Shown one piece after another: positions 288-37,064 of a DNA stretch of 37,064 bases. The notes beneath the pieces were generated by a model. It was not told the DNA's origin. It saw only the letters and a program-made list of their open reading frames with translations, and ran no database searches. Location of the stretch: the IMG/VR virus record IMGVR_UViG_2778261631_000004. One strand, 5' to 3'. Both the position numbers and the translations under genes were made by a program. Each line of letters opens with the position of its first letter. Position 1 is the first letter of the stretch. This DNA is from a virus. Lineage: Duplodnaviria > Heunggongvirae > Uroviricota > Caudoviricetes.

Positions 288-665
288 TTACTGATTTTTT
301 CTGTGCTGTGGTTTAAACAAACTACTGATAAATAAGAAACACAGTGCCCCCAGCGCACACCAGAACACCGCGCTTAGTAACCATGCCAGCTCTTGCCAGA
401 ATGAGCGCGTCGGTGAAAAAAACAGCCGCATAATGAGCATCGAACAGGGTGCCGCCAGCATTGCGCCAAACAGAGGTTTCAGGACTTCTCTACGCTGTGA
501 AAAGAAGCTGGCGACTGCTCCAGGAAGAATGAAAAATAGCAAGCCGATTTCAGGATGCCCGGCAGCCCGAAAAGCGCCTTTCATGTGCGTCGCCAGAAAA
601 AGGCACACCACAATGAAGAGGACAAAACAGCAGATTGCCCCCGCCCAACGTTGTTTATGTTTCAC
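288..665 (-). CDS. ybjM: Inner membrane protein YbjM
   Basis: 125-aa strongly hydrophobic multi-TM ORF in the conserved position between grxA and ybjL. Confidence 0.8.
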   Translation of the reverse strand: MKHKQRWAGAICCFVLFIVVCLFLATHMKGAFRAAGHPEIGLLFFILPGAVASFFSQRREVLKPLFGAMLAAPCSMLIMRLFFSPTRSFWQELAWLLSAVFWCALGALCFLFISSLFKPQHRKNQ

Positions 666-934
666 TCGTTCCTCCTGACACTGCGTCTATCGAACACATT
701 TTTCGCCAGTGTGGCGTTCAGTAAGATAAAGCCGCTTCGCATTCCATGCTAATATAGGCCAACGCAATTCATATAGCCGTTGATACCTAATGTGATTACA
801 CTAGTAAAATATATTGTTACTTTACTATCGTTTAGGTGCGCTGAATGAATCTGCGCCCTGAATTCTGGTAAAAAACATTATCGTAAATTACCATTTCTTT
901 CAACAGCTTACTAGTAAACAAGAAGTTAGCCTCC

Positions 935-2620
935 GTGAATATAAACGTCGCCGAATTGTTAAATGGGAATTACATTCTGTTATTATTTGTGGTCCTCGCG
1001 CTTGGGCTATGTCTCGGAAAGTTACGACTTGGTTCGATCCAACTGGGTAATTCCATTGGCGTTTTAGTCGTATCGCTGTTATTAGGCCAACAACATTTCA
1101 GCATTAACACCGATGCGCTTAATCTTGGCTTTATGCTGTTTATTTTCTGCGTCGGGGTCGAAGCCGGACCGAACTTTTTTTCCATTTTTTTTCGCGATGG
1201 GAAAAATTACCTAATGTTAGCACTGGTGATGGTTGGCAGTGCGCTGGTGATCGCCTTAGGGTTAGGTAAGCTGTTTGGCTGGGATATTGGCCTGACGGCC
1301 GGTATGTTAGCAGGCTCTATGACGTCGACACCGGTTCTGGTCGGTGCTGGCGATACACTGCGTCATTCCGGCATGGAAAGCAGGCAGCTCTCACTGGCAC
1401 TGGATAATCTGAGCCTCGGGTATGCCTTAACCTATTTAATCGGTCTGGTGAGTTTGATTGTTGGTGCGCGTTACTTGCCGAAATTGCAGCATCAGGACTT
1501 ACAGACCAGCGCCCAGCAAATCGCCCGCGAACGTGGCCTGGACACTGATGCCAACCGTAAGGTTTATTTACCGGTGATCCGCGCCTATCGCGTCGGCCCG
1601 GAGCTGGTGGCCTGGACCGACGGCAAAAATCTGCGTGAACTGGGTATTTATCGACAAACCGGCTGCTACATTGAACGTATTCGACGTAACGGGATTCTGG
1701 CAAATCCAGACGGTGATGCCGTGCTACAAATGGGCGATGAAATAGCGTTGGTAGGCTATCCCGACGCCCATGCCCGACTCGATCCCAGCTTCCGTAACGG
1801 TAAAGAAGTTTTCGATCGTGACCTTCTCGACATGCGTATCGTCACTGAAGAAGTGGTCGTTAAAAACCATAACGCTGTAGGTAAACGTCTCGCACAACTG
1901 AAGTTGACCGATCACGGTTGCTTCCTTAACCGCGTCATTCGTAGCCAGATTGAGATGCCGATAGATGACAACGTCGTGCTTAACAAAGGTGACGTTTTAC
2001 AAGTCAGCGGTGATGCCCGTCGCGTAAAAACCATCGCCGATCGCATCGGCTTTATCTCGATTCACAGCCAGGTCACTGACCTGCTGGCATTTTGCGCCTT
2101 CTTTGTTATTGGGCTGATGATCGGGATGATCACCTTCCAGTTCAGCACATTCAGTTTCGGCATGGGGAACGCTGCCGGGTTGTTATTCGCCGGAATTATG
2201 CTGGGCTTTATGCGTGCTAACCACCCGACCTTCGGTTACATTCCGCAAGGTGCATTAAGCATGGTGAAAGAGTTCGGCTTGATGGTGTTTATGGCAGGCG
2301 TTGGTCTGAGCGCCGGTAGCGGTATTAATAACGGCCTGGGCGCGATTGGCGGTCAGATGTTGATTGCCGGATTAATTGTCAGTCTTGTGCCCGTGGTTAT
2401 CTGTTTCTTGTTCGGTGCTTATGTATTGCGAATGAACCGCGCACTGTTGTTCGGCGCAATGATGGGCGCACGCACCTGCGCGCCGGCAATGGAGATCATC
2501 AGTGATACAGCTCGCAGTAACATCCCTGCGCTGGGCTACGCGGGCACCTACGCAATCGCCAACGTCCTGCTGACGCTGGCAGGGACAATCATCGTCATGG
2601 TATGGCCAGGATTAGGATAA
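935..2620 (+). CDS. ybjL: Putative AAE-family transporter YbjL (two membrane domains flanking cytoplasmic TrkA-C-like domains)
   Basis: 561-aa ORF, hydrophobic N- and C-terminal halves with soluble central region; recognisable as YbjL; starts with a non-ATG (GTG) codon. Confidence 0.9.
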
Positions 2621-4747: not shown

Positions 4748-7700
4748 GCGTCGTATCCCCCCTGATCGCTGTAGTTACTCCTGGCTTTTGCCTTCAGCCT
4801 GCGTTCACGTTCATCAAGCTGGCGGGCCACCTCCCGCGCAATATCCTGCGCACTTTGTCCTGGCTGCGTCTGGATGATGATCTGCGTCGGTGCCTCAATG
4901 CTGTAAACGGGCGGCACAGTGGCTGCGCGACTCACCATCGCTTCTCCACCTTTCGCGGGAAGTGCCAAAGGGTGCAACGGTGGAAGCTCTGCTGGCGCGG
5001 CAGCAACGCCCATCATTCCGGCGACAACCGCAGCCAGTGCAGCGGTATTTCTCCGGCTGGTCACGTTTGCCGGGCCGTTGACAATTTCCGGCCCGTTTTC
5101 ACCGACAATGCCGAACTGCCCGCGCGGGATATACCCGCCGCTGTCATACAACCCCGCAAAGCCATATCCCCATGACGGAAAACCACCCGATGTCATCATC
5201 ACTTTACCGTCTGCATTCACCGTCGCAGGTTGCTGACGCGTCACGCTTTCCGGCAGTTTTGCCTTTGCGGCTTCTTTACTGACAATGCCGAGTTTCTCCA
5301 GCAACCAGGAAACGCCGGATTTCAGGGAGTCCAGCGGATGCATGACCATATTCAGCCCTTCCGCCAGTACCTCCCCGAATCGCCGCCCCATTGCCGCTGC
5401 ACTCTGCAGTTCGGCAGAGGTCGACTTAACGGGCGTCAGCAGATCAGTAAACCAGCCCCACAGCGCCTGTACTTTGTCGCCAATCCACTGAAACACAGGC
5501 TTAAGTGGTTCGAATGCAGCACTGATGGGACCTGCCGCCGCTTTGAATCCTTCCACCACGCCACCGAGAAATGCGGTGATGGGTTGCCAGTATTTCCAGA
5601 CAACCAGCGCCACGCCCGCCAGTGCAGTAACCACAAGACCTATCGGACTGAGCAGAGCACCTAACAGACCAGATATGGCATACAGAGCAACGCGCAGCAT
5701 CGCCAGCGGGCCGGATGCCAGCACTCGCAGCACCGCGCCTGCGGCGGACAGTCCACCGCGCAGTACCGCCAGTGGATTCATAAACATCACAGCAACAGCA
5801 CGTAAACCGGATAATCCAGACCGCAAAAGTGCAACCGGCGCACCTGCTACAGTTTTCAGGACATTTCCCGTCAGTGATGCCGTGCGGCGCAAAGACGACA
5901 ACGGCGCAGTAAGTAAACCTGCGGCGTTGCCCGATGAAGCAAGCCCGCGTCGCAGCAGTGCAAGTGGTGCGCCAGCCAACCAGGACAACACGCTGCTGGT
6001 TCGTGTTACCGCTGCCGTAACGGAAGGTAACGTTTTGATACCCAGCACAGAGAATCCCAGACGGATGACTGCCAGCGGCCCCAGCACTGCAGCCAGCGCC
6101 ACCGCTAAGGTACCGAGGCCCACGGTAACGGCAGCCACCACAGCGGCTACTTTCATCAGTGTGCCCGTCAGTTCCGGGTTAGCTTCCACCCAGCGACGCA
6201 ACGCCCCCGTGACGCTTTTCACCGTGTACAGAATATCCATCAGCGGCTGGCGCAGCGTTTCGCCCAGGCTACTGAAGGTGTTCCGCGCTCCGGTTTTGAC
6301 CAGCAACCACTGAGCAGAAAGTGAGTCTTTGTTGATGTCGGATTCTTTCTGCATGGAACCGAGCGCATCATTGCCCGCTGTCAGTTTTAGCTGGCGCTGC
6401 AGTTCCGGCAGGTTGTTTGCCAGTTTCGCCGCGTCATCGCCAAACTCTTTGCCAAACAACATGGTCATGGCAGACAGACGCTTGTCCTGCGGCAGCGCGT
6501 TCACCTTCTCCAGCACACGCTGGATAGTTCCCATCGCATCCTTCGTCATCTGCTTTTCAATCACTTCAGGATTGAGTTTCAGCAGATTCATCCCTTCAAA
6601 GAAACTCTTGCTTTGCATGGTGGCAATGGACAATTCACGCACCATCGCGTTTGCTGCACTGGCTGCAACCTCCGGCGCAGCGCCCAGTGTCAGAAAGGTG
6701 GAACCCAGCGCCGCCGCTTTACGATAATCCAGACGGTCAGCCACACCGCCCAGACGTTGCATGACATCAATAATGTCTGCCCCTTTCGACATGGCGTTAT
6801 CATCCAGATAGTTCAGCGCATCACCGAGCTGTTCAATATTGCGGGTAGGGATTTTGTAGAGCTGGGCGATTTTCCCCAGACTTTCTGACAGTTCATCCGC
6901 TGGCAGCTCAAAGGCTGTTGCCGCCTTTGCTGCCGTACTGGCGAAGGCCAGCAGGTCACGTTTCTGGTCTTCCCAGCTGTCGTCAGGGTTTGCGACGTTC
7001 ATGCGCGCACCACCTTCAACCAGTGCAGCGAAGTCCACCGCACCGTTTTCCATCGGCAACTGTTCGCTGGCAGCCTTGATGGCATCCTGCATTTCATAAA
7101 AACGTGCAGTGCGGTTGCCATTATCGTCACGCAGACCATTGACCTGCTTTGCCACACCTTTCATGGCATCTTCCATGCTGGTATAGCTTTTTACTGCCGC
7201 CATCACTGGCGTCCCCATTGCCAGCCCTGCCGCCGTGGTGGTGGCTCCGGCTCCTGCGATGCGATCGCGCACCTCCAGCGAACGGGCATAACTGGCACGC
7301 GCCACATTCATCCTGCGCTGAGCTTCCCCCAGTCGCTTCAGCCGCGCCTCCTGTTTCGACAGTTCCTGGTTATAACGTGATGTTTCACGGGCTAAACGGG
7401 CAGTTGCTCCCGCATCATCTTTCGCAGAAATTCCCGCCCGGTACAGTTCAGCACGCACAAGCGCCGTTTGCTTCTGCAAATATTTTTGTTGTTCTTCCAG
7501 ACGTTGGACTGCCAGCGTTTGCCGACCTAAAGCCACAAGATGCCTTTGTGATGGTTGTTCCATCGCCTCCAGCTCAGAGCTAAGCAAATTAGCCTTCTGT
7601 CTGGCATAGTTCAGCCTGTCGCCTAACTTCTTGTTATCGGCCTGCAGCTTGCGAAATTTTTCCAGGCTGTTACCCGCCTGATTGAGTTGCTTTAATGCGT

Positions 7701-7821
7701 CACGGGAGTTTCTGATTGCGCCAGCCAGCTCTTTCGAACTGGCCTGTGCAGCACGGAATGGGCGGGTGAGTTTGTCAACCGCATTAAGAATGACCTGCAG
7801 GCGCAGGTTATTATCACTCAT
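4744..7821 (-). CDS. T: Tail tape measure protein T
   Basis: 1025-aa Ala/Gly/Leu-rich ORF with coiled-coil N-terminal half and hydrophobic central segments, downstream of E/E'. Confidence 0.85.
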   Translation of the reverse strand: MSDNNLRLQVILNAVDKLTRPFRAAQASSKELAGAIRNSRDALKQLNQAGNSLEKFRKLQADNKKLGDRLNYARQKANLLSSELEAMEQPSQRHLVALGRQTLAVQRLEEQQKYLQKQTALVRAELYRAGISAKDDAGATARLARETSRYNQELSKQEARLKRLGEAQRRMNVARASYARSLEVRDRIAGAGATTTAAGLAMGTPVMAAVKSYTSMEDAMKGVAKQVNGLRDDNGNRTARFYEMQDAIKAASEQLPMENGAVDFAALVEGGARMNVANPDDSWEDQKRDLLAFASTAAKAATAFELPADELSESLGKIAQLYKIPTRNIEQLGDALNYLDDNAMSKGADIIDVMQRLGGVADRLDYRKAAALGSTFLTLGAAPEVAASAANAMVRELSIATMQSKSFFEGMNLLKLNPEVIEKQMTKDAMGTIQRVLEKVNALPQDKRLSAMTMLFGKEFGDDAAKLANNLPELQRQLKLTAGNDALGSMQKESDINKDSLSAQWLLVKTGARNTFSSLGETLRQPLMDILYTVKSVTGALRRWVEANPELTGTLMKVAAVVAAVTVGLGTLAVALAAVLGPLAVIRLGFSVLGIKTLPSVTAAVTRTSSVLSWLAGAPLALLRRGLASSGNAAGLLTAPLSSLRRTASLTGNVLKTVAGAPVALLRSGLSGLRAVAVMFMNPLAVLRGGLSAAGAVLRVLASGPLAMLRVALYAISGLLGALLSPIGLVVTALAGVALVVWKYWQPITAFLGGVVEGFKAAAGPISAAFEPLKPVFQWIGDKVQALWGWFTDLLTPVKSTSAELQSAAAMGRRFGEVLAEGLNMVMHPLDSLKSGVSWLLEKLGIVSKEAAKAKLPESVTRQQPATVNADGKVMMTSGGFPSWGYGFAGLYDSGGYIPRGQFGIVGENGPEIVNGPANVTSRRNTAALAAVVAGMMGVAAAPAELPPLHPLALPAKGGEAMVSRAATVPPVYSIEAPTQIIIQTQPGQSAQDIAREVARQLDERERRLKAKARSNYSDQGGYDA

Positions 7822-7824
7822 CGT

Positions 7825-8250
7825 TGGCCCCGCTTCTCTGAATCGCTTTATACCGCCATTCCAGCACTTCGGTCAGCGGCATAACGTCAGTAACGGATGG
7901 CGGCCAGTGAAAGATGGTGGCGATATCAGCCACCAGATCGTCAACCGTCAGGCTGTCGGTAAACCGGCAAGCACCGACTTCTTCAACAAAAAAGTGACAA
8001 CCTCAACCGACATGGCAGTGAGATCTGCCGGGTCCATCTCTGCAATTTCCTGTGCAGTCAGTGCCGGACTGGAGATGCGGGGGATCACGGTCATCATCGC
8101 GTTCACATCCATATCCATAATGGCCTGCAGGCGTGTACCGCGCAGCGCACCGGACTGCGGTTTACGCAGCACAATTTCGGTGATTTCTGTTTTACCGCGC
8201 TTGATGGGGGTATCCAGTTGAATGGTCTTTTCAGTCTGCTTATCGCTCAT
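7825..8250 (-). CDS. E+E' fusion made by programmed -1 frameshift (3' end approximate)
   Basis: Slippery run TTTTTTG near the 3' end of E (about 7975..7995) and open -1 frame continuing to the start of T, as in P2 E/E+E'. End coordinate not verified. Confidence 0.4.
7948..8250 (-). CDS. E: Tail assembly chaperone E
   Basis: 100-aa ORF between FII and T; its C-terminus (VTFLLKK) is encoded by a T-run slippery sequence. Confidence 0.8.
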   Translation of the reverse strand: MSDKQTEKTIQLDTPIKRGKTEITEIVLRKPQSGALRGTRLQAIMDMDVNAMMTVIPRISSPALTAQEIAEMDPADLTAMSVEVVTFLLKKSVLAGLPTA

Positions 8251-8304
8251 TTTGCTGTCCTGTAAATTGGGTTCTGGCGCGGTATCCCGCGCCGTTCAGA
8301 TATA

Positions 8305-8820
8305 TCAGAGGCCGAGGGCGTTGCGGTGCGCTTCCATCAGGTCCACACCGCCCACAATTTCCACCATGTTGATAAGGTCCACTTCATAGAGCACCTCACC
8401 ATTTATAGTCAGCTTCGCGTAGCTGTTGGTACTGGTCACTTTGGTGGTGTTGCTTTCGCCCGTCTTCCACTCGCCGGAATCCACTTCTTTGTGACGTCCA
8501 CGCACCACAAGCTCCACGGCCTGCACTTCCCCGGTATCGTCACGCTGGATAGAGCCGGTAAAGCGCAACTGGATACCATCCACCGTGGCTTTGCCCATCT
8601 GCTTAAACAGCAGCAGTTCAGTACCACCAATGGAAAATTCCGTATCCAGTGCGCCGTCATCCAGCCCCAGATCCACATCCACTGCACCCGGCATTCCGCC
8701 GCCGCGATACTTCTCATATTTGCGGGTAAATTTCGGCAGCGTCAGCGACTCAACGATCCCCTGCCAGTTGTTCCCGTCATTAAACAGGTTCAGGTGTTTT
8801 AATTTGCGTGGTAAAGCCAT
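8305..8820 (-). CDS. FII: Major tail tube protein FII
   Basis: 171-aa ORF after the sheath gene; P2 FII-like. Confidence 0.9.
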   Translation of the reverse strand: MALPRKLKHLNLFNDGNNWQGIVESLTLPKFTRKYEKYRGGGMPGAVDVDLGLDDGALDTEFSIGGTELLLFKQMGKATVDGIQLRFTGSIQRDDTGEVQAVELVVRGRHKEVDSGEWKTGESNTTKVTSTNSYAKLTINGEVLYEVDLINMVEIVGGVDLMEAHRNALGL

Positions 8821-8829
8821 GTTGTCCCC

Positions 8830-10002
8830 TTACGCGCTGACCTGGCTGGAGAAATTCACCAGGTACTGATCGGTGATGCGCTGACGCAGCATCAGGTTTT
8901 CAAGTGGCGGCACTGGCGTGTAGTCGTAGTCGATGGTGAGTTTTCCGGCTTTCAGCGTGTCTTTGTCGTTCACCGACTCATCCAGCCAGCAATCACCACC
9001 AATGAGATAGCCCTGACTGACCAGGCTGCGCATTTTGGCGCGGATACCCTCGATAATGTCGCGGGCCAGCGACGGATTCAGCGGTTTATCCACCGCCCAC
9101 ATGTGCGCTTCTGCCATCGTGTCCGTCAGCACCTGCGCCGTGCGGGTGTAGTTTTCGAAGGCAAAGAGCGGGTCATCACTCAGGCAGCGGGAACCCCAGA
9201 AGCGAAAACCGTCTTTGCGGATAAGGGTGGTGACGTCGTTCTGGTTCAGCAGTCCCGCATCGGTTGCCGGGTCCTGCAGATCCCAGAACACATCAGCAGA
9301 AATTCCGGTGACACCGTTAACGCCCACGTTGGACAGGCTTTTGTGCCATCCGGTCTGCTCGTCAATTTTGGCGCGCAGACCAAGCGCACGGGCGGTGGCA
9401 TAAGCCGTTGCTTCGGCATTCAGCACCGTGTCCCAGCCAGTAAAGTCGGGCCAGATCAGCATTCCTTCACGCTGACTGAAGTTTTCACGGTAAGTGATTG
9501 CTTCCTGCACCGTCTTGCAACCATACGCTGACAGGTAAGCAAATCCACGCAGGCTTTGCGCCACGCTCAGCAACTCAGTAGCTACCGCCTTCGTGTCGTG
9601 ACCTGGCACGCCGAGAATGCGCGGTTTAACGCCGAGCTGTGACTGGGCAGATAACAGGGCTTTCATGCCTGTTTTTTTACCTTCAGCGGTCACTGCGCCG
9701 ATGATATTGGTCGTGGTTTCTTCTTCCGTTTCACCCTGCGGCACACGCACAACAACGGTCACGGGTTTTGCCTGGTCAGCGATGGCATCCAGCGAACGAG
9801 CCAGCGTGCCTGACTCACCCGCTTTACCGCTGGCAGTCAGCACATCAGTGATCAGCACGGGTTTATTAAGAGGAAACATTTTTGCATCGGCATCATCGCC
9901 CGTGCAGACCATACCCACGATGGCGGTGCTCACCGTGGTAATGGATCGGGTGCCTTCGTTGACTTCAACAACGCGCACCCCGTGGTGGTAATCCTGAGCC
10001 AT
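8830..10002 (-). CDS. FI: Tail sheath protein FI
   Basis: 390-aa ORF heading the F operon; P2 FI-like. Confidence 0.9.
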
Positions 10003-10144: not shown

Positions 10145-10711
10145 TCAGGGAGATTTATTGTTCTTATTTGCCGGAAATTTTCGATAAATGGTAGAAACGC
10201 CTACATCAAAAATCAGTGCAATACGCTGTCTTGATTCTCCGGCCTCGAGTAAACGCCCAATCTGTGCCCACTGTTCGCTGGTCAACTTAGGACGGCGTCC
10301 ACCTACTCTGCCTTTAGCACGAGCTGCAGCCAGCCCCGCCCTAGTACGTTCAACTATCAGTTCGCGTTCCATTTCAGCCAGGGCACCCATGACATGAAAA
10401 AAGAAACGGCCCATTGGGGTGCTGGTATCAATACTGTCAGTCAGGCTTCGGAAATTCACGCCACGCTGGCGCAGCTCTTCTATCAGCGTAACAAGATGCC
10501 GCATACTGCGCCCCAGTCTGTCCAGCTTCCAGACAACCAGCGTGTCTCCTGCCGATAGTGTCCTGAGCAGCTTTTTCAGCCCCGGTCTGTCGGACTTGGT
10601 GCCACTGATTTTATCCTCAAAAATCCGCTCACATCCCGCACAGTTCAGTGCATTGCGTTGCAAATCGGTGTTCTGGTCATTTGTTGACACGCGTACATAG
10701 CCAATAAGCAT
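10145..10711 (-). CDS. Serine-recombinase DNA invertase (Gin/Hin/Pin/Cin family)
   Basis: N-terminus MLIGYVRVSTNDQ with catalytic Ser, resolvase core and C-terminal HTH; very close to Gin/Hin. ORF track start is 2 codons upstream. Confidence 0.9.
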   Translation of the reverse strand: MLIGYVRVSTNDQNTDLQRNALNCAGCERIFEDKISGTKSDRPGLKKLLRTLSAGDTLVVWKLDRLGRSMRHLVTLIEELRQRGVNFRSLTDSIDTSTPMGRFFFHVMGALAEMERELIVERTRAGLAAARAKGRVGGRRPKLTSEQWAQIGRLLEAGESRQRIALIFDVGVSTIYRKFPANKNNKSP

Positions 10712-10738
10712 GATCATCCCCCTGAATAAAAACCGGAG

Positions 10739-11317
10739 ATGATGCCAGTTAGCCGTTATCTCTGCATTTTCATAAACGTTGGTTTAGGAGAAGGCTCTGC
10801 ATTACCGGTTGGGGTGCCTGTTCCGTGGCCTTCAGCCACTCCGCCAACAGGCTGGCTGAAATGCAATGGTGCGGCTTTTTCTGCTGAAGAATACCCGGAA
10901 CTGGCAAAGGCTTACCCGACCAATAAATTGCCTGATTTACGCGGTGAATTTATTCGTGGCTGGGATGATGGACGTGGAGTGGATGCGGGGCGAGCCTTGC
11001 TAAGTCTTCAGGATGACTCTTTTGAAGCTCACAGACATGAGTCCTTTTTTTACGCGGGTATTTCACGCAATGAAACACCATTAAAAAATCTTCCAAGTTC
11101 AGACGAGATGCTGACTTTAAGTTCCACAACTAATGCCTTGTCCCCGGACGGTATTGATGCCACCGATTCGTTAATTGGTAATGATGATTACAACTGTCTG
11201 ATTGAAGGAAATAAAAATAACAAACGAACGGCAACGGGGTTGAGTACCAGTATTGTCGGTGCAGCAGAGACACGCCCACGTAATATTTCATTTAATTACA
11301 TTGTGAGGGCTGCATGA
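10739..11317 (+). CDS. Alternative tail-fibre C-terminal segment (silent orientation, no own promoter/start expected)
   Basis: Shares the GLGE junction motif with H at the crossover site; would be fused to H after inversion. The N-terminal residues in the ORF track are read-through of the crossover region. Confidence 0.55.
   Translation: MMPVSRYLCIFINVGLGEGSALPVGVPVPWPSATPPTGWLKCNGAAFSAEEYPELAKAYPTNKLPDLRGEFIRGWDDGRGVDAGRALLSLQDDSFEAHRHESFFYAGISRNETPLKNLPSSDEMLTLSSTTNALSPDGIDATDSLIGNDDYNCLIEGNKNNKRTATGLSTSIVGAAETRPRNISFNYIVRAA
10781..10797. repeat. Left inverted-repeat crossover site
   Basis: TTGGTTTAGGAGAAGGC, 15 of 17 identical to the reverse complement of the copy inside gene H. Confidence 0.5.
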
Positions 11318-11922
11318 TGTATAACGCTATCTTAAATAATAAATTTATTGCCACAAAGGCAGGAGAGGTTACCGTTTATAACTATGACAGTGAGACACGG
11401 GAGTATATTTCTGCATCAATTGAATATCTTGCTGTGGGTGTCGGTATCCCCGCATATTCCTGTTTAGATGCTCCTGGCACACATAAGGCTGGTTATGCAA
11501 TCTGCCGTTCTGCAGATTTTAACTCATGGGAATATGTGCCAGACCATCGCGGTGAAATCGTCTTTAGCACCGAAACAGGAGAATCAAAAGAAATCACAGC
11601 TCCGGGTGATTACCCTGATAATACAACCACTATCGCCCCGTTAACACCATACGATAAATGGGATGGTGAGAAATGGGTGACGGATACCGATGCACAGCAT
11701 AGCGCCGCAGTAGATGCAGCAGAAGCACAACGCCAGTCGCTGATTGATACTGCAATGGCTTCCATCAGTCTGATTCAACTGAAATTACAGGCCGGACGGA
11801 ATCTGACGCAGGCAGAAACCAGCCGACTTAACACGGTGCTGGATTACATTGACGCGGTGACGGCAACAGATACCAGCACCGCGCCTGATATTATTTGGCC
11901 TGTATTCCCTGAGACTGATTAA
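11314..11922 (+). CDS. Tail-fibre assembly chaperone (alternative orientation)
   Basis: 202-aa ORF with typical Tfa C-terminus (TSTAPDIIWPVFPETD), overlapping the stop of the upstream fibre segment. Confidence 0.75.
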   Translation: MMYNAILNNKFIATKAGEVTVYNYDSETREYISASIEYLAVGVGIPAYSCLDAPGTHKAGYAICRSADFNSWEYVPDHRGEIVFSTETGESKEITAPGDYPDNTTTIAPLTPYDKWDGEKWVTDTDAQHSAAVDAAEAQRQSLIDTAMASISLIQLKLQAGRNLTQAETSRLNTVLDYIDAVTATDTSTAPDIIWPVFPETD

Positions 11923-24712: not shown

Positions 24713-24722
24713 TTTTTAAAAT

Positions 24723-24752
24723 AGGGTGCCATCATTTAAGTAATAGCACCCT
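24723..24752. terminator. Putative bidirectional terminator between convergent Q and the cargo operon
   Basis: Stem AGGGTGC/GCACCCT with a long A/T-rich loop, flanked by A/T runs on both sides. Confidence 0.35.
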
Positions 24753-24759
24753 CTACATT

Positions 24760-25455
24760 TTAAAATTTAGCAAGCTCCATATAAGAAATAGCATCATTAA
24801 AGACCGACACATGTTCTTCAGGAATTATTGCCGAGGCTCCACTAGTTAGTTCAAAGCTAAATTTAGAGTCATGATATAGCCCCCCAACTTTTATTTTATC
24901 GAGTTTAAAATCATTATCCAAAACAAATTTTTTCAAATCATTTAGAGCATCTCCACTAGAATTCAGCTCTAAACACGCCCTTGTTTTATCAGTAACAGGA
25001 ACATTTGAAACTTTCACCTTTGAGATGGCGAAAACTTTGACTCCAAACTCCTCCCTAATTATTTTCATAAAAGCCTTGAGATCTACCGTCAAGTTTCCAT
25101 AGGCAACATTTACCCCTTCACCTTTTGACAAGAAATCAATAAAAGACTTAACTGTCTTTGGAGGATTATAAAAAGTCAACAAACATAATTTATTACTTAA
25201 TGTTTGGATAGAAAAACCAATCTGTTCAAAAACAATCCTTTCGAACTCTAAAATATCACCAAATGGATCAGAAACTGGCTCCAACATTATAGTTTTTTTA
25301 TTAAAAGTCGCAGATATTCCATTGTGAATAGTTTCAAACTTAGTAAAACCAGCACCAATAGCATCAGAATAAGGGGTGTTTTTGATAAAATCAAAGATCG
25401 CTTCAGAACTGGTTCTGATCTTTAATCTCATCCACTTTAATCTTAACTGTGACAT
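24760..25455 (-). CDS. Hypothetical protein, cargo gene 3 of 3 (about 231 aa), no recognisable motif
   Basis: A+T-rich ORF; ATG with AAGGAG Shine-Dalgarno 5 nt upstream, 2 codons inside the ORF-track start; 14-nt gap from upstream gene. Confidence 0.6.
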   Translation of the reverse strand: MSQLRLKWMRLKIRTSSEAIFDFIKNTPYSDAIGAGFTKFETIHNGISATFNKKTIMLEPVSDPFGDILEFERIVFEQIGFSIQTLSNKLCLLTFYNPPKTVKSFIDFLSKGEGVNVAYGNLTVDLKAFMKIIREEFGVKVFAISKVKVSNVPVTDKTRACLELNSSGDALNDLKKFVLDNDFKLDKIKVGGLYHDSKFSFELTSGASAIIPEEHVSVFNDAISYMELAKF

Positions 25456-25474
25456 ATCCACTCCTTATGATGAA

Positions 25475-26539
25475 TTAGCTAATTTCCATTATAATAGAAT
25501 AAGCTCTATTTTCAATTAATTTATTAAATCTATCGGTTTCTCTAGCTGAAAGCTTTTGAGGTTTACTGAAATATTGACCGTTAGACTTATATTTTTTCAC
25601 TCCTTTTACTAAATATGAAAAATTAGTACAGTTTAGTGGATCTCCGAATTGAGCTTCGAGTTCATAAATATCTGGGTCTGCTAGTTTCTCTTTAACCTTC
25701 CATTTTATTTTCCAGATATAAAAGCCTCTATCATAAAGATCACTAAGTTCATCAGATTTAAGAACTCCCTCTCCTTTCAGAGATGCTTTTGACACATGAA
25801 CTCCAGTTTCAGTATTTCCCTCTTCTGCTTCTATTGTTTCAGGTTTTGGATGATATACATAAGCATCAGTAACATCGTCTAATTCATATCCATCTAGGCT
25901 ACGGATTAATTTATCGAAAAACAGTGTCCTAACATCTGCGGAGCTATTATGAGCAAGAGTAATTTCGTTTAATTTTAAATCAAGATTACTGTCATTATCT
26001 TGTTCACTCTGGATCGAAATTATATGCCCGAGGAGGAGATCTTCATAATCTTTGAGATTCTCGTTATCGGGACGACGGATGCTATAACCTTTATCAATAG
26101 GCTCGATTTCAATTAAAGCTTCTTTATTTACAGCCTGCTTAAAATCGCTTTTACTATAATTGGTCGATAGATATCTTATATCTATAAGAACTCGAGAACC
26201 ATCAATAATAATTTTACAATAATCATCCTGAGCAGTTATTTCTTTTTTTAACTTCTCTGCTGCCACTATGATATCGTCCTTAGTGACACTGGATTCAATT
26301 CTTACACATGTATTTTTTTCAGCTCTTGTCTGACCTCCGAGTAATGTTGCTATCTTCTGATGTTCATAATAATCATGAGTCATCCGAGAGTAGTTTCTGG
26401 CTAGATCTTTTCTAGGGGTTTTTTTACAAATAATAGTACCTCTTTCCAAGAAAAGATCTTGTATTTCATTTAATGTAATCTGCTTTTGATTCAAAGCATC
26501 ACATAAAGCCTTATCAGTTACACTATGAATATTTTTCAT
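25475..26539 (-). CDS. Hypothetical protein, cargo gene 2 of 3 (about 354 aa), no recognisable motif
   Basis: A+T-rich ORF; start ATG overlaps the stop of the upstream gene in an ATGA arrangement with a GGGAG Shine-Dalgarno; ORF-track start is 4 codons upstream. Confidence 0.65.
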   Translation of the reverse strand: MKNIHSVTDKALCDALNQKQITLNEIQDLFLERGTIICKKTPRKDLARNYSRMTHDYYEHQKIATLLGGQTRAEKNTCVRIESSVTKDDIIVAAEKLKKEITAQDDYCKIIIDGSRVLIDIRYLSTNYSKSDFKQAVNKEALIEIEPIDKGYSIRRPDNENLKDYEDLLLGHIISIQSEQDNDSNLDLKLNEITLAHNSSADVRTLFFDKLIRSLDGYELDDVTDAYVYHPKPETIEAEEGNTETGVHVSKASLKGEGVLKSDELSDLYDRGFYIWKIKWKVKEKLADPDIYELEAQFGDPLNCTNFSYLVKGVKKYKSNGQYFSKPQKLSARETDRFNKLIENRAYSIIMEIS

Positions 26540-27600
26540 TTCGGCTCCCAAGAAATAACCTCAGAAGAAAAGAATTCTTTTACAGTAGAGACAACTTTGA
26601 CATCCAGATCTTCAAGTCTCTTTTTAGCCTCTTCATCCAGTCCATACTCATGAACATACTTTTCGATCCCACGCTGAAAATGCGACATAACTCTATTATC
26701 TTTCTCACGATACGCCAATCTTATTCTAATTTTATTTATACCATCTAAAATTTGATAATTAGAAAGCAAGTCTAGCAAATAAAAGAATTCATTATCGCTA
26801 TTACCTTTTCTATTGTAATATATAACAAATCCCTCTGGATAAACCATTTCCTCAATACCTTTAGCCCTATTGAATTTATAAACAGGACCATGTTTAATAA
26901 TCATAAATGGTGATAACAAAACTTCAATAGTTGCAGGAAGGTATTTTTCAGTTACAGCAACCTTATGGAAAATAAGTTGAGGATAATAGAATCCATAATC
27001 CTCATCTGGAAATTCTTTTTTTGCAATCAAGTCATTCATATCATTCGTTACTGCCAACATATAATTAATAAGAAATGGATCAATTATATGAATTTGCTGA
27101 CCAGCACATAACGGAATCTTTTCTAAGTTTACAGCCTTATCTCTCCTTCCTTTAGTAGGTTTAGGAGGATTAAAGAAATCATAAAAATCATGTTGCAATT
27201 GATTATCATGATTAAAAACAAATAATAAACCTCGAACTTCGAAATCAATTTGAGAAAAGTTATATTTTTCTGACCATTCCTGGCTATATCGAGCACAATC
27301 AATTGTTTTTGCTAAAGACTCTAATGCAGATTCTATCTTTGTTGCATTAATAGAACCAGCCTTATAACTTTTCAAATCAGTATTTAAATAAATAATTTTA
27401 TTTAAATATGGATCTTTATAACTAAATACCACATCCACTGGGTGTGTGTGCTTTTGTTTTTTACCTTCAGGCTTATGTTTTGTTTCATTATCACAAGAGA
27501 AATCTTGGTCACAGGGGCCATGCTGTTGCCACTTAAAACGACTCATAAGATCGTTAGAAATGCGTTTTGCTAAGTCTTCAATAGGGCCATTCTCTGCCAT
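26536..27600 (-). CDS. Hypothetical protein, cargo gene 1 of 3 (354 aa), no recognisable motif
   Basis: A+T-rich ORF with AAGGA Shine-Dalgarno upstream of the ATG; no Walker A or other signature visible. Confidence 0.65.
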   Translation of the reverse strand: MAENGPIEDLAKRISNDLMSRFKWQQHGPCDQDFSCDNETKHKPEGKKQKHTHPVDVVFSYKDPYLNKIIYLNTDLKSYKAGSINATKIESALESLAKTIDCARYSQEWSEKYNFSQIDFEVRGLLFVFNHDNQLQHDFYDFFNPPKPTKGRRDKAVNLEKIPLCAGQQIHIIDPFLINYMLAVTNDMNDLIAKKEFPDEDYGFYYPQLIFHKVAVTEKYLPATIEVLLSPFMIIKHGPVYKFNRAKGIEEMVYPEGFVIYYNRKGNSDNEFFYLLDLLSNYQILDGINKIRIRLAYREKDNRVMSHFQRGIEKYVHEYGLDEEAKKRLEDLDVKVVSTVKEFFSSEVISWEPK

Positions 27601-27635
27601 TTCATTTCCTTACTTTTGCAGACAAATCTCATTGA

Positions 27636-27665
27636 AAGATAAAGGTAAGCTTTTTGCGTTGCAAG
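27636..27665 (-). promoter_or_regulatory. Candidate sigma-70 promoter of the cargo operon
   Basis: Minus-strand TTGCAA, 17-nt spacer, TATCTT about 40 to 60 nt upstream of the first cargo gene; by-eye match only. Confidence 0.3.
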
Positions 27666-27699
27666 AACTTTGGACTTGATGTGAGAAGCTTAACGCGCG

Positions 27700-27722
27700 C
27701 TCGTATCCCCGCCACGCCTGCC
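27700..27722. other. Candidate cos (cohesive-end) site
   Basis: Minus strand reads GGCGTGGCGGGGA, resembling the G-rich cohesive-end core I recall for P2/186; lies between the Q-side and A-side arms as expected. Confidence 0.45.
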
Positions 27723-27760: not shown

Positions 27761-27787
27761 CGCAAAAGCCCGCCAGAACTGGCGGGC
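27761..27787 (-). terminator. Rho-independent terminator after the lipoprotein gene
   Basis: Stem GCCCGCCAG / CTGGCGGGC with 2-nt loop, followed on the minus strand by TTTTG. Confidence 0.45.
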
Positions 27788-27891: not shown

Positions 27892-28569
27892 CTAGAACGT
27901 GACAGCCTTGTCAAAGCCAGAAATAATTGTATAAGAAATAGACGAGTTATCAGCCTTGTTCACTTTGAACTTGGCACCTTTGTAAGCGATAACATCACTT
28001 CCCTTAGAATCTACAGAAAAATCTGTTGTAAATGCTGCACGAGCCATATCGTTTGCAAATTCACGATAGGTGAACTTCATTACACCGCCTGCATTTCCAT
28101 TGTATTCGATAGTCTTAACCAATGAATTACTCACTCGACACAGCCCATCAGGAACACGTTTGATAGAAATTTCTGATGCAGTATAAGAAGTGCCATTTGG
28201 CGGTGATATCTCATTTTTTGCAGCATCGTAACTAACATAATCAACATAGTTACCGATTTGCCCATAGAGATTTTTTAACGCAACAGCTTGAGGGTTATGA
28301 TAATTGCGGTAAATTCCATTCCCCTCACTGCAATATGTACCAGCAGCGATAGAAGACAATGCACCATTAGCCGCACCAAGTTCTAGTACGTCCGTTTTAA
28401 ATCCAGTAGCAGATGTGATAATGGGATCGCCCATGTAGGCGGTAGCACTTTGCCCAATAGCTGGCTTCACCACTTCAATAGCAGTGATATTTCGGTTAGA
28501 AGCATGTGGCACGCAACCAGTTAGGATTACAGCAAGAGATATTGGTAACGCTACATTATTAATTTTCAT
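27892..28569 (-). CDS. Predicted lipoprotein of unknown function (accessory/moron gene)
   Basis: Signal peptide ending in lipobox LTGC (MKINNVALPISLAVILTGC), Gly/Ser/Thr/Asn-rich mature part; start placed at internal Met; own terminator downstream. Confidence 0.65.
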   Translation of the reverse strand: MKINNVALPISLAVILTGCVPHASNRNITAIEVVKPAIGQSATAYMGDPIITSATGFKTDVLELGAANGALSSIAAGTYCSEGNGIYRNYHNPQAVALKNLYGQIGNYVDYVSYDAAKNEISPPNGTSYTASEISIKRVPDGLCRVSNSLVKTIEYNGNAGGVMKFTYREFANDMARAAFTTDFSVDSKGSDVIAYKGAKFKVNKADNSSISYTIISGFDKAVTF

Positions 28570-28682
28570 TTTTAGCCTATTATTCTTTTCTTGACAAAAA
28601 ACAAGGCGATATCTGATTGACATCGCCTCTCACTCATATGTAACCCTTTTTGATTAGTAAAAACAAGCGTCTATTGACAAAA

Positions 28683-28916
28683 TTAATGCAGCCAGCTGTC
28701 GTCTTCCCACACCTTCTGCAAAATTTTCATCACTTGTTTTCTTTCTTCGTCCAGTTGCAGTCCGGTCAGTTCCACACCGTTAGAGCTACCTTTACGGATA
28801 CGGATTACCGTTTTGGGATACAGGGGGCGCAGATTGCGGTAAAGCTCGGATTCAAGGGCGTCCAGGGTAGACTGGCTAATCTTCTGCTCTTTATCGATCA
28901 TTATTTCAATGCGCAT
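28683..28916 (-). CDS. DinI-family protein
   Basis: MRIEIMIDKEQ...LDALESEL...ILQKVWEDDSW closely parallels E. coli DinI; own GAGGTGA Shine-Dalgarno; ORF-track start is upstream of the likely Met. Confidence 0.8.
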   Translation of the reverse strand: MRIEIMIDKEQKISQSTLDALESELYRNLRPLYPKTVIRIRKGSSNGVELTGLQLDEERKQVMKILQKVWEDDSWLH

Positions 28917-28926
28917 AAAAGTCACC

Positions 28927-29114
28927 TCAACTGATGACATCCATTGAGCGGTTGTATTCGTGGGTTCTGATTTTTGCCATGAGTTCATCAGTCAATTCAG
29001 AAACCCACTGCAGAGCCAGCCCCTTCTCTTCATCACTACACTCACTAGCCGCTACAAGCTTAAGAAAAAAATCAATGCGCTGGAGCTTCAAAGACTCCAA
29101 AAAATAGTCCTGCA
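28927..29114 (-). CDS. Small protein (62 aa) co-transcribed with the DinI-like gene; possible Tum-like antirepressor component
   Basis: ATG preceded by GGAGGAAAG; the ORF-track N-terminal extension would overlap the LexA box, so the shorter start is preferred. Confidence 0.5.
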
Positions 29115-29157
29115 TCTTTCCTCCTATGACACCACAAGCAATACTGTATGCATAAAC

Positions 29158-29173
29158 ACTGTTTATATTTACA
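29158..29173. promoter_or_regulatory. LexA box (SOS operator)
   Basis: CTGTTTATATTTACAG, perfect CTGT-N8-ACAG, overlapping a TATAAT-like element; a second near-consensus box CTGTATGCATAAACAC lies immediately adjacent (29142..29157). Confidence 0.7.
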
Positions 29174-29268
29174 GTATATAATAATCTTACTGATGTAAAA
29201 CGTTTTTTTACGTTCATCAGCCTGATATGCCTGGTATTATTAAGAGCACGAATTGTTAACCCGCGTAA

Positions 29269-34959: not shown

Positions 34960-35616
34960 GTGAAGGCTCCAAAAGAACACTTCTGGTTCAACTTTAAGAT
35001 CGCTTTTGGAATCTGTCAACGAATTTTGGATTTCTTTGGAGGACTTGTGGATTTCAATAGCGGCGGTAAGAAAGCCATAGAACGTTTAGTTGAAGCATAT
35101 GGGTTCGGTACTCGTCAGGCTCTCTGTGATCATTTAGGTGTTTCTAAGAGCACCATGGCAACGCGCTATATGCGTGATATTTTTCCAGCAGATTGGGTAA
35201 TCCAGTGCGCCCTTGAAACGGGCACCTCGCTTAATTGGCTAACAACAGGGCATGGTTCAAAGCAAGCATCAGCAAATACAAATACTATAGAAGTAGAAAA
35301 ATATTTATTGTCTGATGGAGCATTGCAGAAAGACGGTTTTTATATTTTTGATAAGGGATTTCTACCCTCTACGTTTAAAAAACCTTTTGTCATCACAGAT
35401 AACAATTCTGAATTTATTTGTGATAAAGAATTTGATGATATACGTGATGGTAAATGGGTAATAAGTATTGATGGCGAAATAACGATCCGTGACATTACTC
35501 GTTTACCCGGTGGAAGAATCTTCGTCGAGGGTGGAAACAGAGCCTTCGAATGCAAGATAGAAGACATTGAAATAATTGGTAAAATTATAAGTTTGACAGT
35601 CAAGTATGTTAAATAG
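34960..35616 (+). CDS. cI: CI-type immunity repressor (186 CI-like)
   Basis: N-terminal domain EAYGF...CALETG.SLNWL.TG as in 186 CI. ORF track starts at GTG 34960; a GTG at about 35047 preceded by GGAGGA is an alternative start giving a 189-aa product. Confidence 0.75.
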   Translation: MKAPKEHFWFNFKIAFGICQRILDFFGGLVDFNSGGKKAIERLVEAYGFGTRQALCDHLGVSKSTMATRYMRDIFPADWVIQCALETGTSLNWLTTGHGSKQASANTNTIEVEKYLLSDGALQKDGFYIFDKGFLPSTFKKPFVITDNNSEFICDKEFDDIRDGKWVISIDGEITIRDITRLPGGRIFVEGGNRAFECKIEDIEIIGKIISLTVKYVK

Positions 35617-35631
35617 TACCGGGAGGAAACT

Positions 35632-35823
35632 ATGCTTGGTAAGGTATTTTTTGTGGTTTTGTCATGTTCTTTGTTATTAAACCCACTAACTACCTATGCT
35701 AGAAATTATCCCTGCTCAGGGAAAAAGGGAGGTGTTTCTCACTGTACCTCAGATGGCAAATTCGTTTGCAATGATGGAACTATTAGTAAATCCAAAAAAA
35801 TCTGTACTAAAAACTCACGATAA
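35632..35823 (+). CDS. Small secreted cysteine-rich protein (63 aa) of unknown function
   Basis: N-terminal signal-peptide-like segment then 4 to 5 Cys in a Lys/Gly-rich about 40-aa mature part; A+T-rich; between cI and int. Confidence 0.45.
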
Positions 35824-36011
35824 CTTTTGTTTTTATATCTGCGTCTAAAATAAAAATGAGCCGCAGGTTAACCGCAAAAGTTACATGCTCACATAGCAAA
35901 AAGAATAGCCAACTTCATTATGGCTTCAGTGAGATGTATGGTCGTAGGATTTCATACATTGACACTGGTTATACATACAGTAAAAATGCTCTCTACTGGA
36001 GGGCATTTTTT

Positions 36012-37064
36012 ATGGCAGTACGAAAACTCACCACAGGGAAATGGCTTTGCGAATGTTACCCCGCCGGACGAAGTGGGCGTCGTGTGCGTAAACAATTCGC
36101 CACCAAAGGCGAAGCTCTGGCTTTTGAGCGCCACACGATGGAAGAAACCGAATCAAAGCCCTGGCTGGGCGAATCAGTGGATCGTCGAACCCTGAAAGAC
36201 GTGGTTGAGCTATGGTTCAAACTACATGGTAAATCTCTGACTGCTGGACAGCATGTCTATGACAAATTGCTGCTGATGGTTGACGCTCTAGGCAATCCTC
36301 TTGCAACCGATCTCACCTCTAAAATGTTTGCCCACTATCGAGATAAACGCCTGACAGGCGAGATCTACTTCAGCGAGAAATGGAAGAAAGGAGCAAGCCC
36401 GGTCACCATTAACCTGGAGCAAAGCTATCTAAGTAGTGTTTTTAGCGAACTATCCCGTCTGGGCGAATGGTCGTATCCGAACCCACTGGAGAACATGCGA
36501 AAATTCACCATCGCAGAAAAAGAGATGGCATGGCTTACCCATGAGCAGATTGTTGAATTGCTGGCTGATTGCAAACGTCAGGACCCAATTCTGGCACTGG
36601 TAGTTAAGATATGCTTAAGCACAGGCGCACGCTGGCGTGAAGCCGTAAATCTTACCCGCTCACAGGTGACCAAATACCGAATTACCTTTGTCAGAACGAA
36701 GGGGAAGAAAAACAGAAGCATCCCTATCAGTAAAGAGCTTTACGAAGAGATCATGGCGCTTGATGGGTTCAATTTCTTCACAGACTGCTATTTTCAATTT
36801 TTATCCGTGATGGAAAAAACGTCTATCGTGCTCCCTCGCGGTCAACTCACACACGTTCTGCGCCATACGTTTGCGGCGCACTTCATGATGTCGGGTGGAA
36901 ACATTCTGGCCTTACAAAAAATTCTCGGACACCACGATATAAAAATGACTATGCGTTACGCACATCTGGCACCGGATCATCTGGAAACGGCGCTCCGTTT
37001 CAATCCTCTGGCAACGCTGCCAAGTGGCGACAAAGTGGCGGCAGCGGTTGGCATTACCCCGTAA
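36012..37064 (+). CDS. int: Tyrosine integrase (P2/186 family)
   Basis: Start placed at MAVRKLTTGKW; C-terminal catalytic region HVLRHTFA ... LGHHDIKMTMRYAHL; ends exactly at the window edge. Confidence 0.9.
   Translation: MAVRKLTTGKWLCECYPAGRSGRRVRKQFATKGEALAFERHTMEETESKPWLGESVDRRTLKDVVELWFKLHGKSLTAGQHVYDKLLLMVDALGNPLATDLTSKMFAHYRDKRLTGEIYFSEKWKKGASPVTINLEQSYLSSVFSELSRLGEWSYPNPLENMRKFTIAEKEMAWLTHEQIVELLADCKRQDPILALVVKICLSTGARWREAVNLTRSQVTKYRITFVRTKGKKNRSIPISKELYEEIMALDGFNFFTDCYFQFLSVMEKTSIVLPRGQLTHVLRHTFAAHFMMSGGNILALQKILGHHDIKMTMRYAHLAPDHLETALRFNPLATLPSGDKVAAAVGITP

Follow-up and report, generated by a model that had tools for sequence, protein, structure and literature searches.

The operon between the portal gene and cos

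The window is the whole stretch of DNA that was analysed, 37,064 nucleotides. It carries three minus-strand open reading frames, here called Hp1, Hp2 and Hp3 (Table 1). A preliminary description of this DNA had proposed three tightly coupled genes, and all of them are present in the sequence. The stop codon of Hp1 overlaps the start of Hp2 in an ATGA motif, also as proposed. The distance between Hp2 and Hp3, previously given as 14 nt, is really 19 nt, because homologues begin with MSQLRL, and the ATG of this start has an AGGAG 6 nt before it.

Table 1. Coordinates of the operon and its associated elements in the window.
Feature	Position	Strand	Remarks
Terminator hairpin, bidirectional	24723..24752	.	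12-bp stem, U-tracts on both sides; common to convergent Q and Hp3
Hp3	24760..25455	-	231 aa
Hp2	25475..26539	-	354 aa, counted from ATG
Hp1	26536..27600	-	354 aa
Hp1 Shine-Dalgarno	27610-27607	-	AGGA, read from sequence
Candidate operon promoter	27636..27664	-	-35 TTGCAA 27664-27659, 17-nt spacer, -10 TATCTT 27641-27636
cos core	27700..27718	-	GGCGTGGCGGGGATACGAG
G+C-rich hairpin + T-tract	27764..27787	-	A side of cos; GCCCGCC-AGTTCT-GGCGGGC-TTTT, read from sequence

The windowed G+C content agrees with the claim that the operon is A+T-rich compared with its flanks. It is 0.326 (32.6%) in the operon, against 0.548 in the structural genes on the left; the replication genes on the right have 0.50. 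Elsewhere in the window, no 2.8-kb stretch falls under 0.43. The neighbours are the portal and terminase genes on the left and the replication endonuclease A gene on the right, that is, the gpQ-gpA variable region of a P2-like prophage. The operon was correctly placed between Q and cos, since the cos core lies about 100 nt upstream of Hp1. In P2 this interval has no genes, as had been stated; it consists of 167 nt with the tQ terminator alone. The junction from Hp3 to the portal gene is the same in 26 of 30 viral contigs. A DinI-like RecA modulator is encoded nearby (28683-28988), and a neighbouring 243-aa ORF gave no informative match in Pfam, NCBIfam and PADLOC scans.

The proposal that the operon has its own promoter stands in part. 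The hexamers and their spacing are invariant in the five loci compared, including a divergent one (L084) whose flanking sequence has drifted. The match to the consensus is weak (8/12), and the promoter scan missed this element. The hairpin said to be shared with convergent Q is well supported, with a folding energy of -25.7 kcal/mol and z = -6.4; 0 of 200 shuffled sequences fold as well.

The cos core is also found in the pFR109 clone described below and in seven related loci. P2's own cos core gave 0 matches in the window with up to 3 mismatches allowed, and the prophage cos is a 186-like variant. The G+C-rich hairpin on the A side of cos, an observation from the sequence only that the same scan did not flag, is likewise present in the pFR109 clone. 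Such an element would shield the operon from minus-strand transcripts coming from upstream.

Relationship to the 3HP system

We compared the three proteins with the PADLOC profiles by profile search. They match the 3HP models in order: Hp1 with PDLC03004 (1.2e-64), Hp2 with PDLC03005 (1.7e-39) and Hp3 with PDLC03006 (1.1e-10). Each match spans nearly the whole protein. Judged by sequence, the operon is almost certainly a divergent member of the catalogued 3HP anti-phage system, listed in DefenseFinder as Rst_3HP. Rousset et al. 2022 cloned this system, under the name 'hp + hp + hp', from the P2 hotspot and found that it protects E. coli against phage P1. The validated exemplar is pFR109, from E. 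coli E1114, the sole variant tested. Protection against P1 was thus demonstrated by others, for a homologue at 23-36% identity.

More precisely, Hp1 shares 36% identity with the validated pFR109 protein (1e-68). Hp2 shares 30% (7e-41) with the Hp2 representative of their Table S5B, which is near-identical to pFR109 Protein 2. Hp3 shares 23% (5e-12) with pFR109 Protein 3, in the sequence of Table S2A and locus L088. The two operons differ by these low identities. In both, the genes are co-oriented as Hp1-Hp2-Hp3 and have similar sizes (354/354/231 here, 333/359/227 there). Both are A+T-rich cargo of P2-like prophages, placed in the variable region from Q to A; they begin beside cos and point away from it. 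However, the window type is on the Q side of cos and convergent with Q, whereas the validated type is on the A side (as in L088). P2 old and tin are also lysogen-protective cargo adjoining cos in a P2-family phage. Their proteins are unrelated and they lie on the A side, whereas the window operon fills the Q-cos interval. The general reading of the preliminary description, horizontally acquired anti-phage cargo adjoining cos in a P2-like prophage, is supported.

System 32 in Table S5B of Rousset et al. lists a protein 81% identical to the window Hp3. We considered whether divergent pairs of Hp1 and Hp2 had recently exchanged their Hp3 and rejected this as an artefact of mixing this table with that of the cloned system. 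Protein 3 of the cloned system (Table S2A) begins with MKKVKWLKL and is identical to the Hp3 of L088, unlike the third protein of Table S5B. By inspection, the Hp1 and Hp3 of L088 equal pFR109 Protein 1 and Protein 3. Neither the fetched loci nor the complete E. coli genomes contain an Hp1/Hp2 pair of the E1114 type joined to an Hp3 of the window type. Row 32 probably consists of cluster representatives drawn from different loci.

The order Hp1-Hp2-Hp3 is conserved in about 100 loci across phyla. Next to Hp2 comes the third gene, both in 71 genome loci with all three genes detected and in 28 of the 30 viral contigs. The three-gene cassette is under strong purifying selection, and Hp1 has dN/dS values of 0.03-0.05. 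Of the 81 cassette loci scanned, 80 belong to the genome collection; P2 markers accompany 5 of the 81 and 4 of these 80. The cassette is also found on plasmids, where tblastn with Hp1 returned three-gene relatives only. Near-identical copies of the operon exist in RefSeq E. coli genomes; of the 1277 E. coli genomes with a match to some part of the query, just 11 have the full cassette.

The Hp1, Hp2 and Hp3 proteins

The preliminary description had reported no PD-(D/E)xK signature in these proteins. This is incorrect for Hp1. It contains E3, H53-P-x-D56 and N73-T-D75-L-K77-S-Y79, invariant in 24 homologues down to 37% identity. E3, D56 and D75-x-K77 lie in hydrophobic, strand-like contexts (DVVFSY and IIYLNTDLK). 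By its sequence, Hp1 appears to follow the pattern of the superfamily, with the upstream glutamate E3, the acidic D56 and D75-x-K77, all invariant. PF26115 (PDDEXK_GAPS4) is precomputed on every listed Hp1 homologue, including those 82-91% identical. The window Hp1 had no match to PF26115 in the local Pfam copy, and the family assignment comes from the annotation of its homologues. In RefSeq, the Hp1 of a 99.5%-identical locus is named 'PD-(D/E)XK nuclease domain-containing'. We consider it very likely that Hp1 is a PD-(D/E)xK nuclease and the effector of the system.

Against the NCBIfam model GapS4a (NF047933), Hp1 scores 3.7e-10, and 18 of the 24 homologues match this model too. The comparison indicates that Hp1 represents a sister family to GapS4a rather than a member, because it reaches 39.5 bits against a cutoff of 270 and is aligned over residues 14-209 only.

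The predicted structure of Hp2 strongly resembles RdgC along the greater part of its length. Hp2 is likely a DNA-binding scaffold or sensor with an RdgC-type fold. It is acidic overall (pI 5.6; family median 5.25), contrary to the expectation for a simple DNA clamp. Its family has 611 representatives by profile search, and the best 150 of these 611 miss the distant tail. Three relatives of Hp2 match GapS4b (NF047934) at 17-24 bits against a cutoff of 300 (1.1e-5, 1.2e-5 and 1.6e-3), and the NCBIfam search gave no GapS4b match for the window Hp2 itself. Hp2 would then be a distant relative of GapS4b.

The model of Hp3, of medium confidence, has moderate likeness to the RdgC/IML3-like fold. Hp3 is possibly a second, smaller version of this fold. 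Its possible roles are those of a partner or a regulator of Hp2, and we propose only tentatively that it is a ring partner. No match of Hp2 or Hp3 to the RdgC family was obtained in Pfam or in a profile search against PDB sequences, and no solved structure is linked to either by sequence. We also examined Hp2 and Hp3 as paralogues of each other or of Hp1 and discarded this; the hhalign probability is 0.4% between Hp2 and Hp3 and at most 1.2% in all the comparisons.

Possible mode of action

GAPS4 was described by Mahata et al. 2024 and 2025. It consists of GAPS4a and GAPS4b, which form an a2b2 complex with a modelled ring of b-subunits; DNA breaks trigger its DNase, and the outcome is abortive. 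Hp1 has the PDDEXK_GAPS4 nuclease domain with the same position of the catalytic motif. Both systems have the nuclease gene followed by that of its partner, and relatives of Hp2 match GapS4b weakly. A ring was also modelled for the GAPS4b dimer, and the fold predicted for Hp2 is that of ring-forming RdgC. On the other hand, GAPS4 presents the non-canonical HGxD...SxK, whereas Hp1 has the canonical acidic HPxD...DxK in all 24 sequences. The scores of Hp1 and of the Hp2 relatives are far below the GapS4a and GapS4b cutoffs, and the window Hp2 does not match GapS4b, so the analogy is one of distant homology. In GAPS4, two genes or their a-b fusion suffice for defence, and the third gene is always present in 3HP; therefore the mechanism may differ.

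Proteins of the RdgC/RexA/IML3-CHL4 class bind DNA without specificity, in the form of ring homodimers or of horseshoe heterodimers. Within a prophage exclusion system, lambda RexA is the component that binds DNA. The predicted folds of Hp2 (strongly) and Hp3 (moderately) resemble this class, although neither has detectable sequence similarity to it. The partner of RexA is the membrane protein RexB, whereas in 3HP the predicted fold has a soluble nuclease as its partner.

From these likenesses we infer the formation of a complex, the sensing of DNA ends, an abortive outcome and the role of Hp3. Hp2 probably forms a ring or horseshoe round DNA and carries the nuclease Hp1, as in RdgC and the modelled GAPS4b dimer. 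Hp3 would be an obligatory third subunit, possibly with a smaller version of the Hp2 fold. It may join Hp2 in a DNA-gripping heteromer, in the manner of IML3 and CHL4, or gate the assembly. On intact DNA the complex would stay inactive; ends or breaks that arise in infection would license it. Once licensed, it would degrade DNA non-specifically and abort the infection. By analogy with GAPS4, we put this kind of trigger with an abortive outcome at somewhat under an even chance. The full scheme, in which 3HP is a three-component sister of GAPS4 and Hp2 with Hp3 forms a heteromeric DNA-encircling sensor that licenses the nuclease, is a tentative one. Taken as a whole, the best explanation is a divergent 3HP system with Hp1 as nuclease effector, an RdgC-like DNA-binding assembly of Hp2 and Hp3 and a GAPS4-like trigger (probability of about 0.6).

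The preliminary description had favoured a possibly undescribed system. None of the three proteins has a Pfam match in the local library, no resource names a domain in Hp2 or Hp3, and a 2024 survey could not place Rst_3HP in any known domain family. A system unrelated to known ones is nevertheless very improbable, and refuted by the criterion that the preliminary description itself had set, given the ordered, significant matches to the three 3HP models and to the validated proteins. PHROG families already exist for Hp1, Hp2 and Hp3, and the window-type Hp3 is in Table S5B of Rousset et al. A module that benefits the phage in recombination, replication or maintenance, rather than primarily in defence, has a little more in its favour. 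It could consist of RdgC-like RecA modulators with a nuclease, or of an addiction cassette of the toxin-antitoxin kind that keeps the prophage stable. Some phages encode a bona fide RdgC; RdgC is a modulator of RecA, and lambda RexA has a further effect on the choice between lysis and lysogeny; here a DinI-like RecA modulator is near and the operon abuts cos. However, the homologous three-gene cassette gave phage resistance alone on a plasmid. Most loci of the genome collection do not have P2 markers, and some are on plasmids. The cassette is variable cargo, complete in few E. coli genomes, and its G+C content is foreign to the phage. We consider this function quite improbable.

Direct restriction without abortion of the infection is a more serious alternative, yet still unlikely. 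The RdgC-like ring would thread onto the ends of injected linear phage DNA and Hp1 would degrade that molecule only. The circular chromosome would be spared, closer to RecBCD or Shedu than to the suicide of GAPS4. Free ends would be the preferred loading site of a closed ring, the lone validated homologue acts against P1, which enters as linear DNA, and Shedu and Hachiman are cited as PD-(D/E)xK systems that sense DNA ends or aberrant DNA states. The present data fit either action. Nevertheless, GAPS4, the closest relative to have been characterised, destroys the DNA of the host as well as that of the phage, and cells die when the multiplicity of infection is high; RdgC binds circular DNA too.

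Standard tools (PADLOC and DefenseFinder) already call this locus 3HP, so it has small value as a discovery. The literature searched assigns no domains or mechanism to 3HP and contains no link of it to GAPS4 or RdgC; the GAPS4 preprint mentions neither 3HP nor RdgC. What the present analysis adds is the E...HPxD...DxK core of Hp1 and its PDDEXK_GAPS4 family, the RdgC likeness of Hp3 in a weaker model and the gene order in about 100 loci. In this way 3HP becomes directly testable, as a putative GAPS4-type PD-(D/E)xK nuclease with a predicted RdgC-fold partner and a possible second RdgC-like subunit. The comparison suggests that RdgC-fold DNA binders recur as phage-exclusion sensors (RexA, GAPS4b, Hp2 and Hp3). 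If the proposed mechanism is true, 3HP would belong with GAPS4 and lambda RexA to a single class of immune modules that use the RdgC fold as a sensor of DNA state. A prophage that packages from cos would then have to stop its own cos cleavage from triggering the system beside it, which counts against the mechanism. Finally, divergent 3HP variants recur on either side of cos, which points to the Q-cos interval as a second cargo slot in the P2 hotspot.

Relationship of the operon to the 3HP system

The three minus-strand ORFs that had been read from the sequence alone are present in the window (Table). They match the PADLOC models Hp1, Hp2 and Hp3 in gene order and at near full length (1.2e-64, 1.7e-39 and 1.1e-10, respectively). 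These models constitute the 3HP system, and we name the proteins after them. In Rousset et al. 2022, the gpQ-gpA hotspot of P2-like prophages was the source of eight further cloned systems. In that study, 3HP was cloned from E. coli E1114 as plasmid pFR109 ("hp + hp + hp"). DefenseFinder calls the system Rst_3HP and describes it as mostly prophage-encoded. Identity between the window proteins and their validated counterparts is 36% (1e-68) for Hp1, 30% (7e-41) for Hp2 and 23% (5e-12) for Hp3. Besides, system 32 of Table S5B in Rousset et al. 2022 (116 occurrences) includes a protein 81% identical to the window Hp3. The locus is present at 99.0% or higher in five complete E. coli genomes, and six have a variant at about 80%. 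In a few genomes, more distant variants occupy the same interval between the portal gene Q and cos. Judged from these sequence comparisons, the operon is therefore a divergent member of a catalogued system and not a new one. The preliminary description had proposed a possibly undescribed system; the ordered 3HP matches and the homology to validated proteins refute it.

Reference sequences drawn from Table S5B are a chimeric set. Row 32 combines Hp1 and Hp2 of the E1114 type with an Hp3 of the window type, which is not Protein 3 of the cloned system (Table S2A, row pFR109). Protein 3 of pFR109 is instead identical to Hp3 of the E. coli locus in NZ_CP148400.1, whose Hp1 also matches Protein 1 by inspection. 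A recent module swap of Hp3, which would make the operon a mosaic, was considered and dropped. The idea came from treating the third entry of Table S5B as Hp3 of the validated system.

Features located in the window
Feature	Coordinates	Strand	Remarks
ybjM and ybjL (Asp-Al_Ex/TrkA_C permease)	288-2620		host genes, left end
Serine invertase (Resolvase + HTH_7)	within 10145-11922	minus	dip of G+C
Hp3 ORF	24760-25455	minus	231 aa
Hp2 ORF	25475-26539	minus	354 aa from ATG
Sigma-70 match TTGAAA-16-TATAAT	25488-25515	minus	near consensus, 11/12
Hp1 ORF	26536-27600	minus	354 aa
Candidate promoter TTGCAA-17-TATCTT	27664-27636	minus	weak consensus match
cos core GGCGTGGCGGGGATACGAG	27700-27718		about 100 nt upstream of Hp1
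243-aa ORF	27892-28623	minus	directly on A side of cos, G+C about 0.41
DinI-like gene (PF06183, 9e-23) and small PHROG 698 ORF	28683-29217	minus	
186-type CI repressor and tyrosine integrase	34960-37064		right end, G+C 0.37-0.39

Composition, signals and conservation

The G+C content of the operon is 0.32-0.33, against 0.548 in the structural genes on the left and 0.50 in the replication genes on the right. This bears out the A+T-richness noticed earlier. Elsewhere in the window, no second stretch of 2.8 kb falls below 0.43. The genes Hp1 and Hp2 overlap by ATGA, as first described. Between Hp2 and Hp3, the Shine-Dalgarno sequence (AGGAG) stands, while the gap of 14 nt has to be corrected to 19 nt. 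All homologues of Hp3 share its ATG start. The proposed hairpin shared by Hp3 and the convergent Q is also confirmed, with a stem of 12 bp and U-tracts on either side (-25.7 kcal/mol, z = -6.4).

The candidate promoter was not picked up by a promoter scan of the window. Its two hexamers and their spacing are invariant in five loci, one of them with diverged flanks. The sigma-70 match falls within the 3'-terminal part of Hp2, precedes the Hp3 start by about 30 nt and could provide a separate Hp3 transcript. Since it sits in A+T-rich coding sequence, it may be a chance match.

We scanned one genome per species (80 loci) together with an E. coli locus, 81 in total. All three genes were detected, adjacent and in the same order, in 71 of them, from Gamma-, Beta- and Alphaproteobacteria, Desulfobacterota, Bacteroidota and Cyanobacteria. 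The remaining loci are mostly interrupted by a contig end. Only one untruncated genome locus, from Methylophaga sp. 41_12_T18, has no Hp3 match: phmmer found no homologue after Hp2, downstream of position 9081. This may reflect a highly divergent Hp3 or a genuine two-gene organisation. Plasmid relatives with 28% identity in Hp1 still have three genes. P2 markers occur in only 5/81 loci (four from the genome collection), and the cassette is therefore mobile on other elements as well.

Of 30 IMG/VR contigs carrying an Hp2 relative, all three genes occur in 28 and a P2-type portal gene convergent with Hp3 in 26. Contig 2576861721_000003 has an insertion of about 1.3 kb between Hp2 and Hp3 (7000-8320), and its Hp2 appears truncated at the 3' end. 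Possibly, an insertion sequence disrupts this operon. The Hp2 family comprises 611 representatives at 50% clustering.

Hp3 is the fastest-evolving protein, with about 30% identity where Hp1 has 62%. In comparisons with relatives at about 80% nucleotide identity, Hp1 and Hp2 have dN/dS values of 0.02-0.05 and Hp3 has values of 0.07-0.08, all approximate because dS is saturated. All three genes are predicted to be functional.

Predicted nuclease and mechanism

Precomputed Pfam annotation places PF26115 (PDDEXK_GAPS4) on every Hp1 homologue among the matches listed in a large protein database. The local Pfam copy gave no PF26115 match. The NCBIfam model GapS4a matches Hp1 residues 14-209 at 3.7e-10, far under the family cutoff, and it matches 18/24 Hp1 homologues. 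In the Hp1 alignment (to 37% identity), E3, H53-P-x-D56, D63 and N73-T-D75-L-K77-S-Y79 are invariant. These residues form a predicted canonical PD-(D/E)xK core, and their position is that of the HGxD...SxK site in GAPS4a, where the Asp is required for defence. RefSeq names the protein of a 99.5%-identical locus as a PD-(D/E)XK nuclease domain protein.

GAPS4 assembles as an a2b2 complex, modelled with a ring-shaped GAPS4b dimer whose helical domains are docking sites for the GAPS4a nucleases. Dimers of RdgC are ring-shaped and bind DNA in a basic pore. In IML3-CHL4, a small and a large protein sharing one fold pair up to grip DNA. The phage-exclusion sensor RexA of lambda has the fold of RdgC and IML3-CHL4. 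Putting these properties together, Hp2, alone or with Hp3, would form a DNA-encircling or DNA-gripping assembly carrying Hp1. DNA ends or breaks from infection would then license Hp1 for DNA degradation. The homologies, the motif and the synteny are observed and the folds are predicted; by analogy, we infer the complex, the trigger and the outcome. The literature searched gave no domain assignment or mechanism for 3HP, and no papers tying it to GAPS4 or RdgC. The mechanistic hypothesis is the sole part with some novelty.

Several points speak against this mechanism. The distance from GAPS4 is large, the third gene is invariably present, and the overall charge of Hp2 is acidic. Likewise, a prophage that cuts cos would have to avoid triggering its own system. 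The same parts may instead attack linear incoming DNA directly, with the host not killed; the data are compatible with this alternative as well as with an abortive outcome. A recombination or addiction module benefiting the phage is unlikely, given that a homologue on a plasmid gave validated defence and many loci are without P2 markers.

The cos region and the rest of the prophage

The Q-cos interval of phage P2 measures 167 nt and contains the tQ terminator only, and old and tin lie on the opposite side of cos. The slot of the window operon is therefore unusual, as the preliminary description correctly held. This operon occupies the Q side of cos and is directed toward Q. In contrast, the validated type is on the A side, toward the replication gene A. 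Its order in NZ_CP148400.1 is Q, two unrelated minus-strand genes, cos and Hp1-Hp2-Hp3. Both types start adjoining cos and are transcribed away from it. The two other genes (5577-6689, both minus) encode an 'LPO_1073/Vpar_1526 family protein' and an 81-aa hypothetical protein. Thus, the Q-cos interval is itself a variable cargo slot. The record is a 55-kb 'plasmid' rich in P2-like phage genes.

The N-terminus of the 243-aa ORF resembles that of a lipoprotein (MKINNVALPISLAVILTGC, read from an internal Met). The ORF matches PHROG 1353, a family of unknown function, and Pfam, PADLOC and NCBIfam scans gave no informative match. It adds a second cargo gene, as yet uncharacterised, to the canonical hotspot. 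The DinI-like gene and the PHROG 698 ORF lie between it and gene A, and DinI-like genes are found again at this position in related prophages.

The window is a 186/P2-like prophage adjoining the host genes ybjM and ybjL. Its last position is exactly the integrase stop codon, and no tRNA is found within it. The serine invertase adjoins plus-strand tail-collar and tail-fibre-assembly genes; this region resembles an invertible tail-fibre switch of host range, of the Gin/Cin type.
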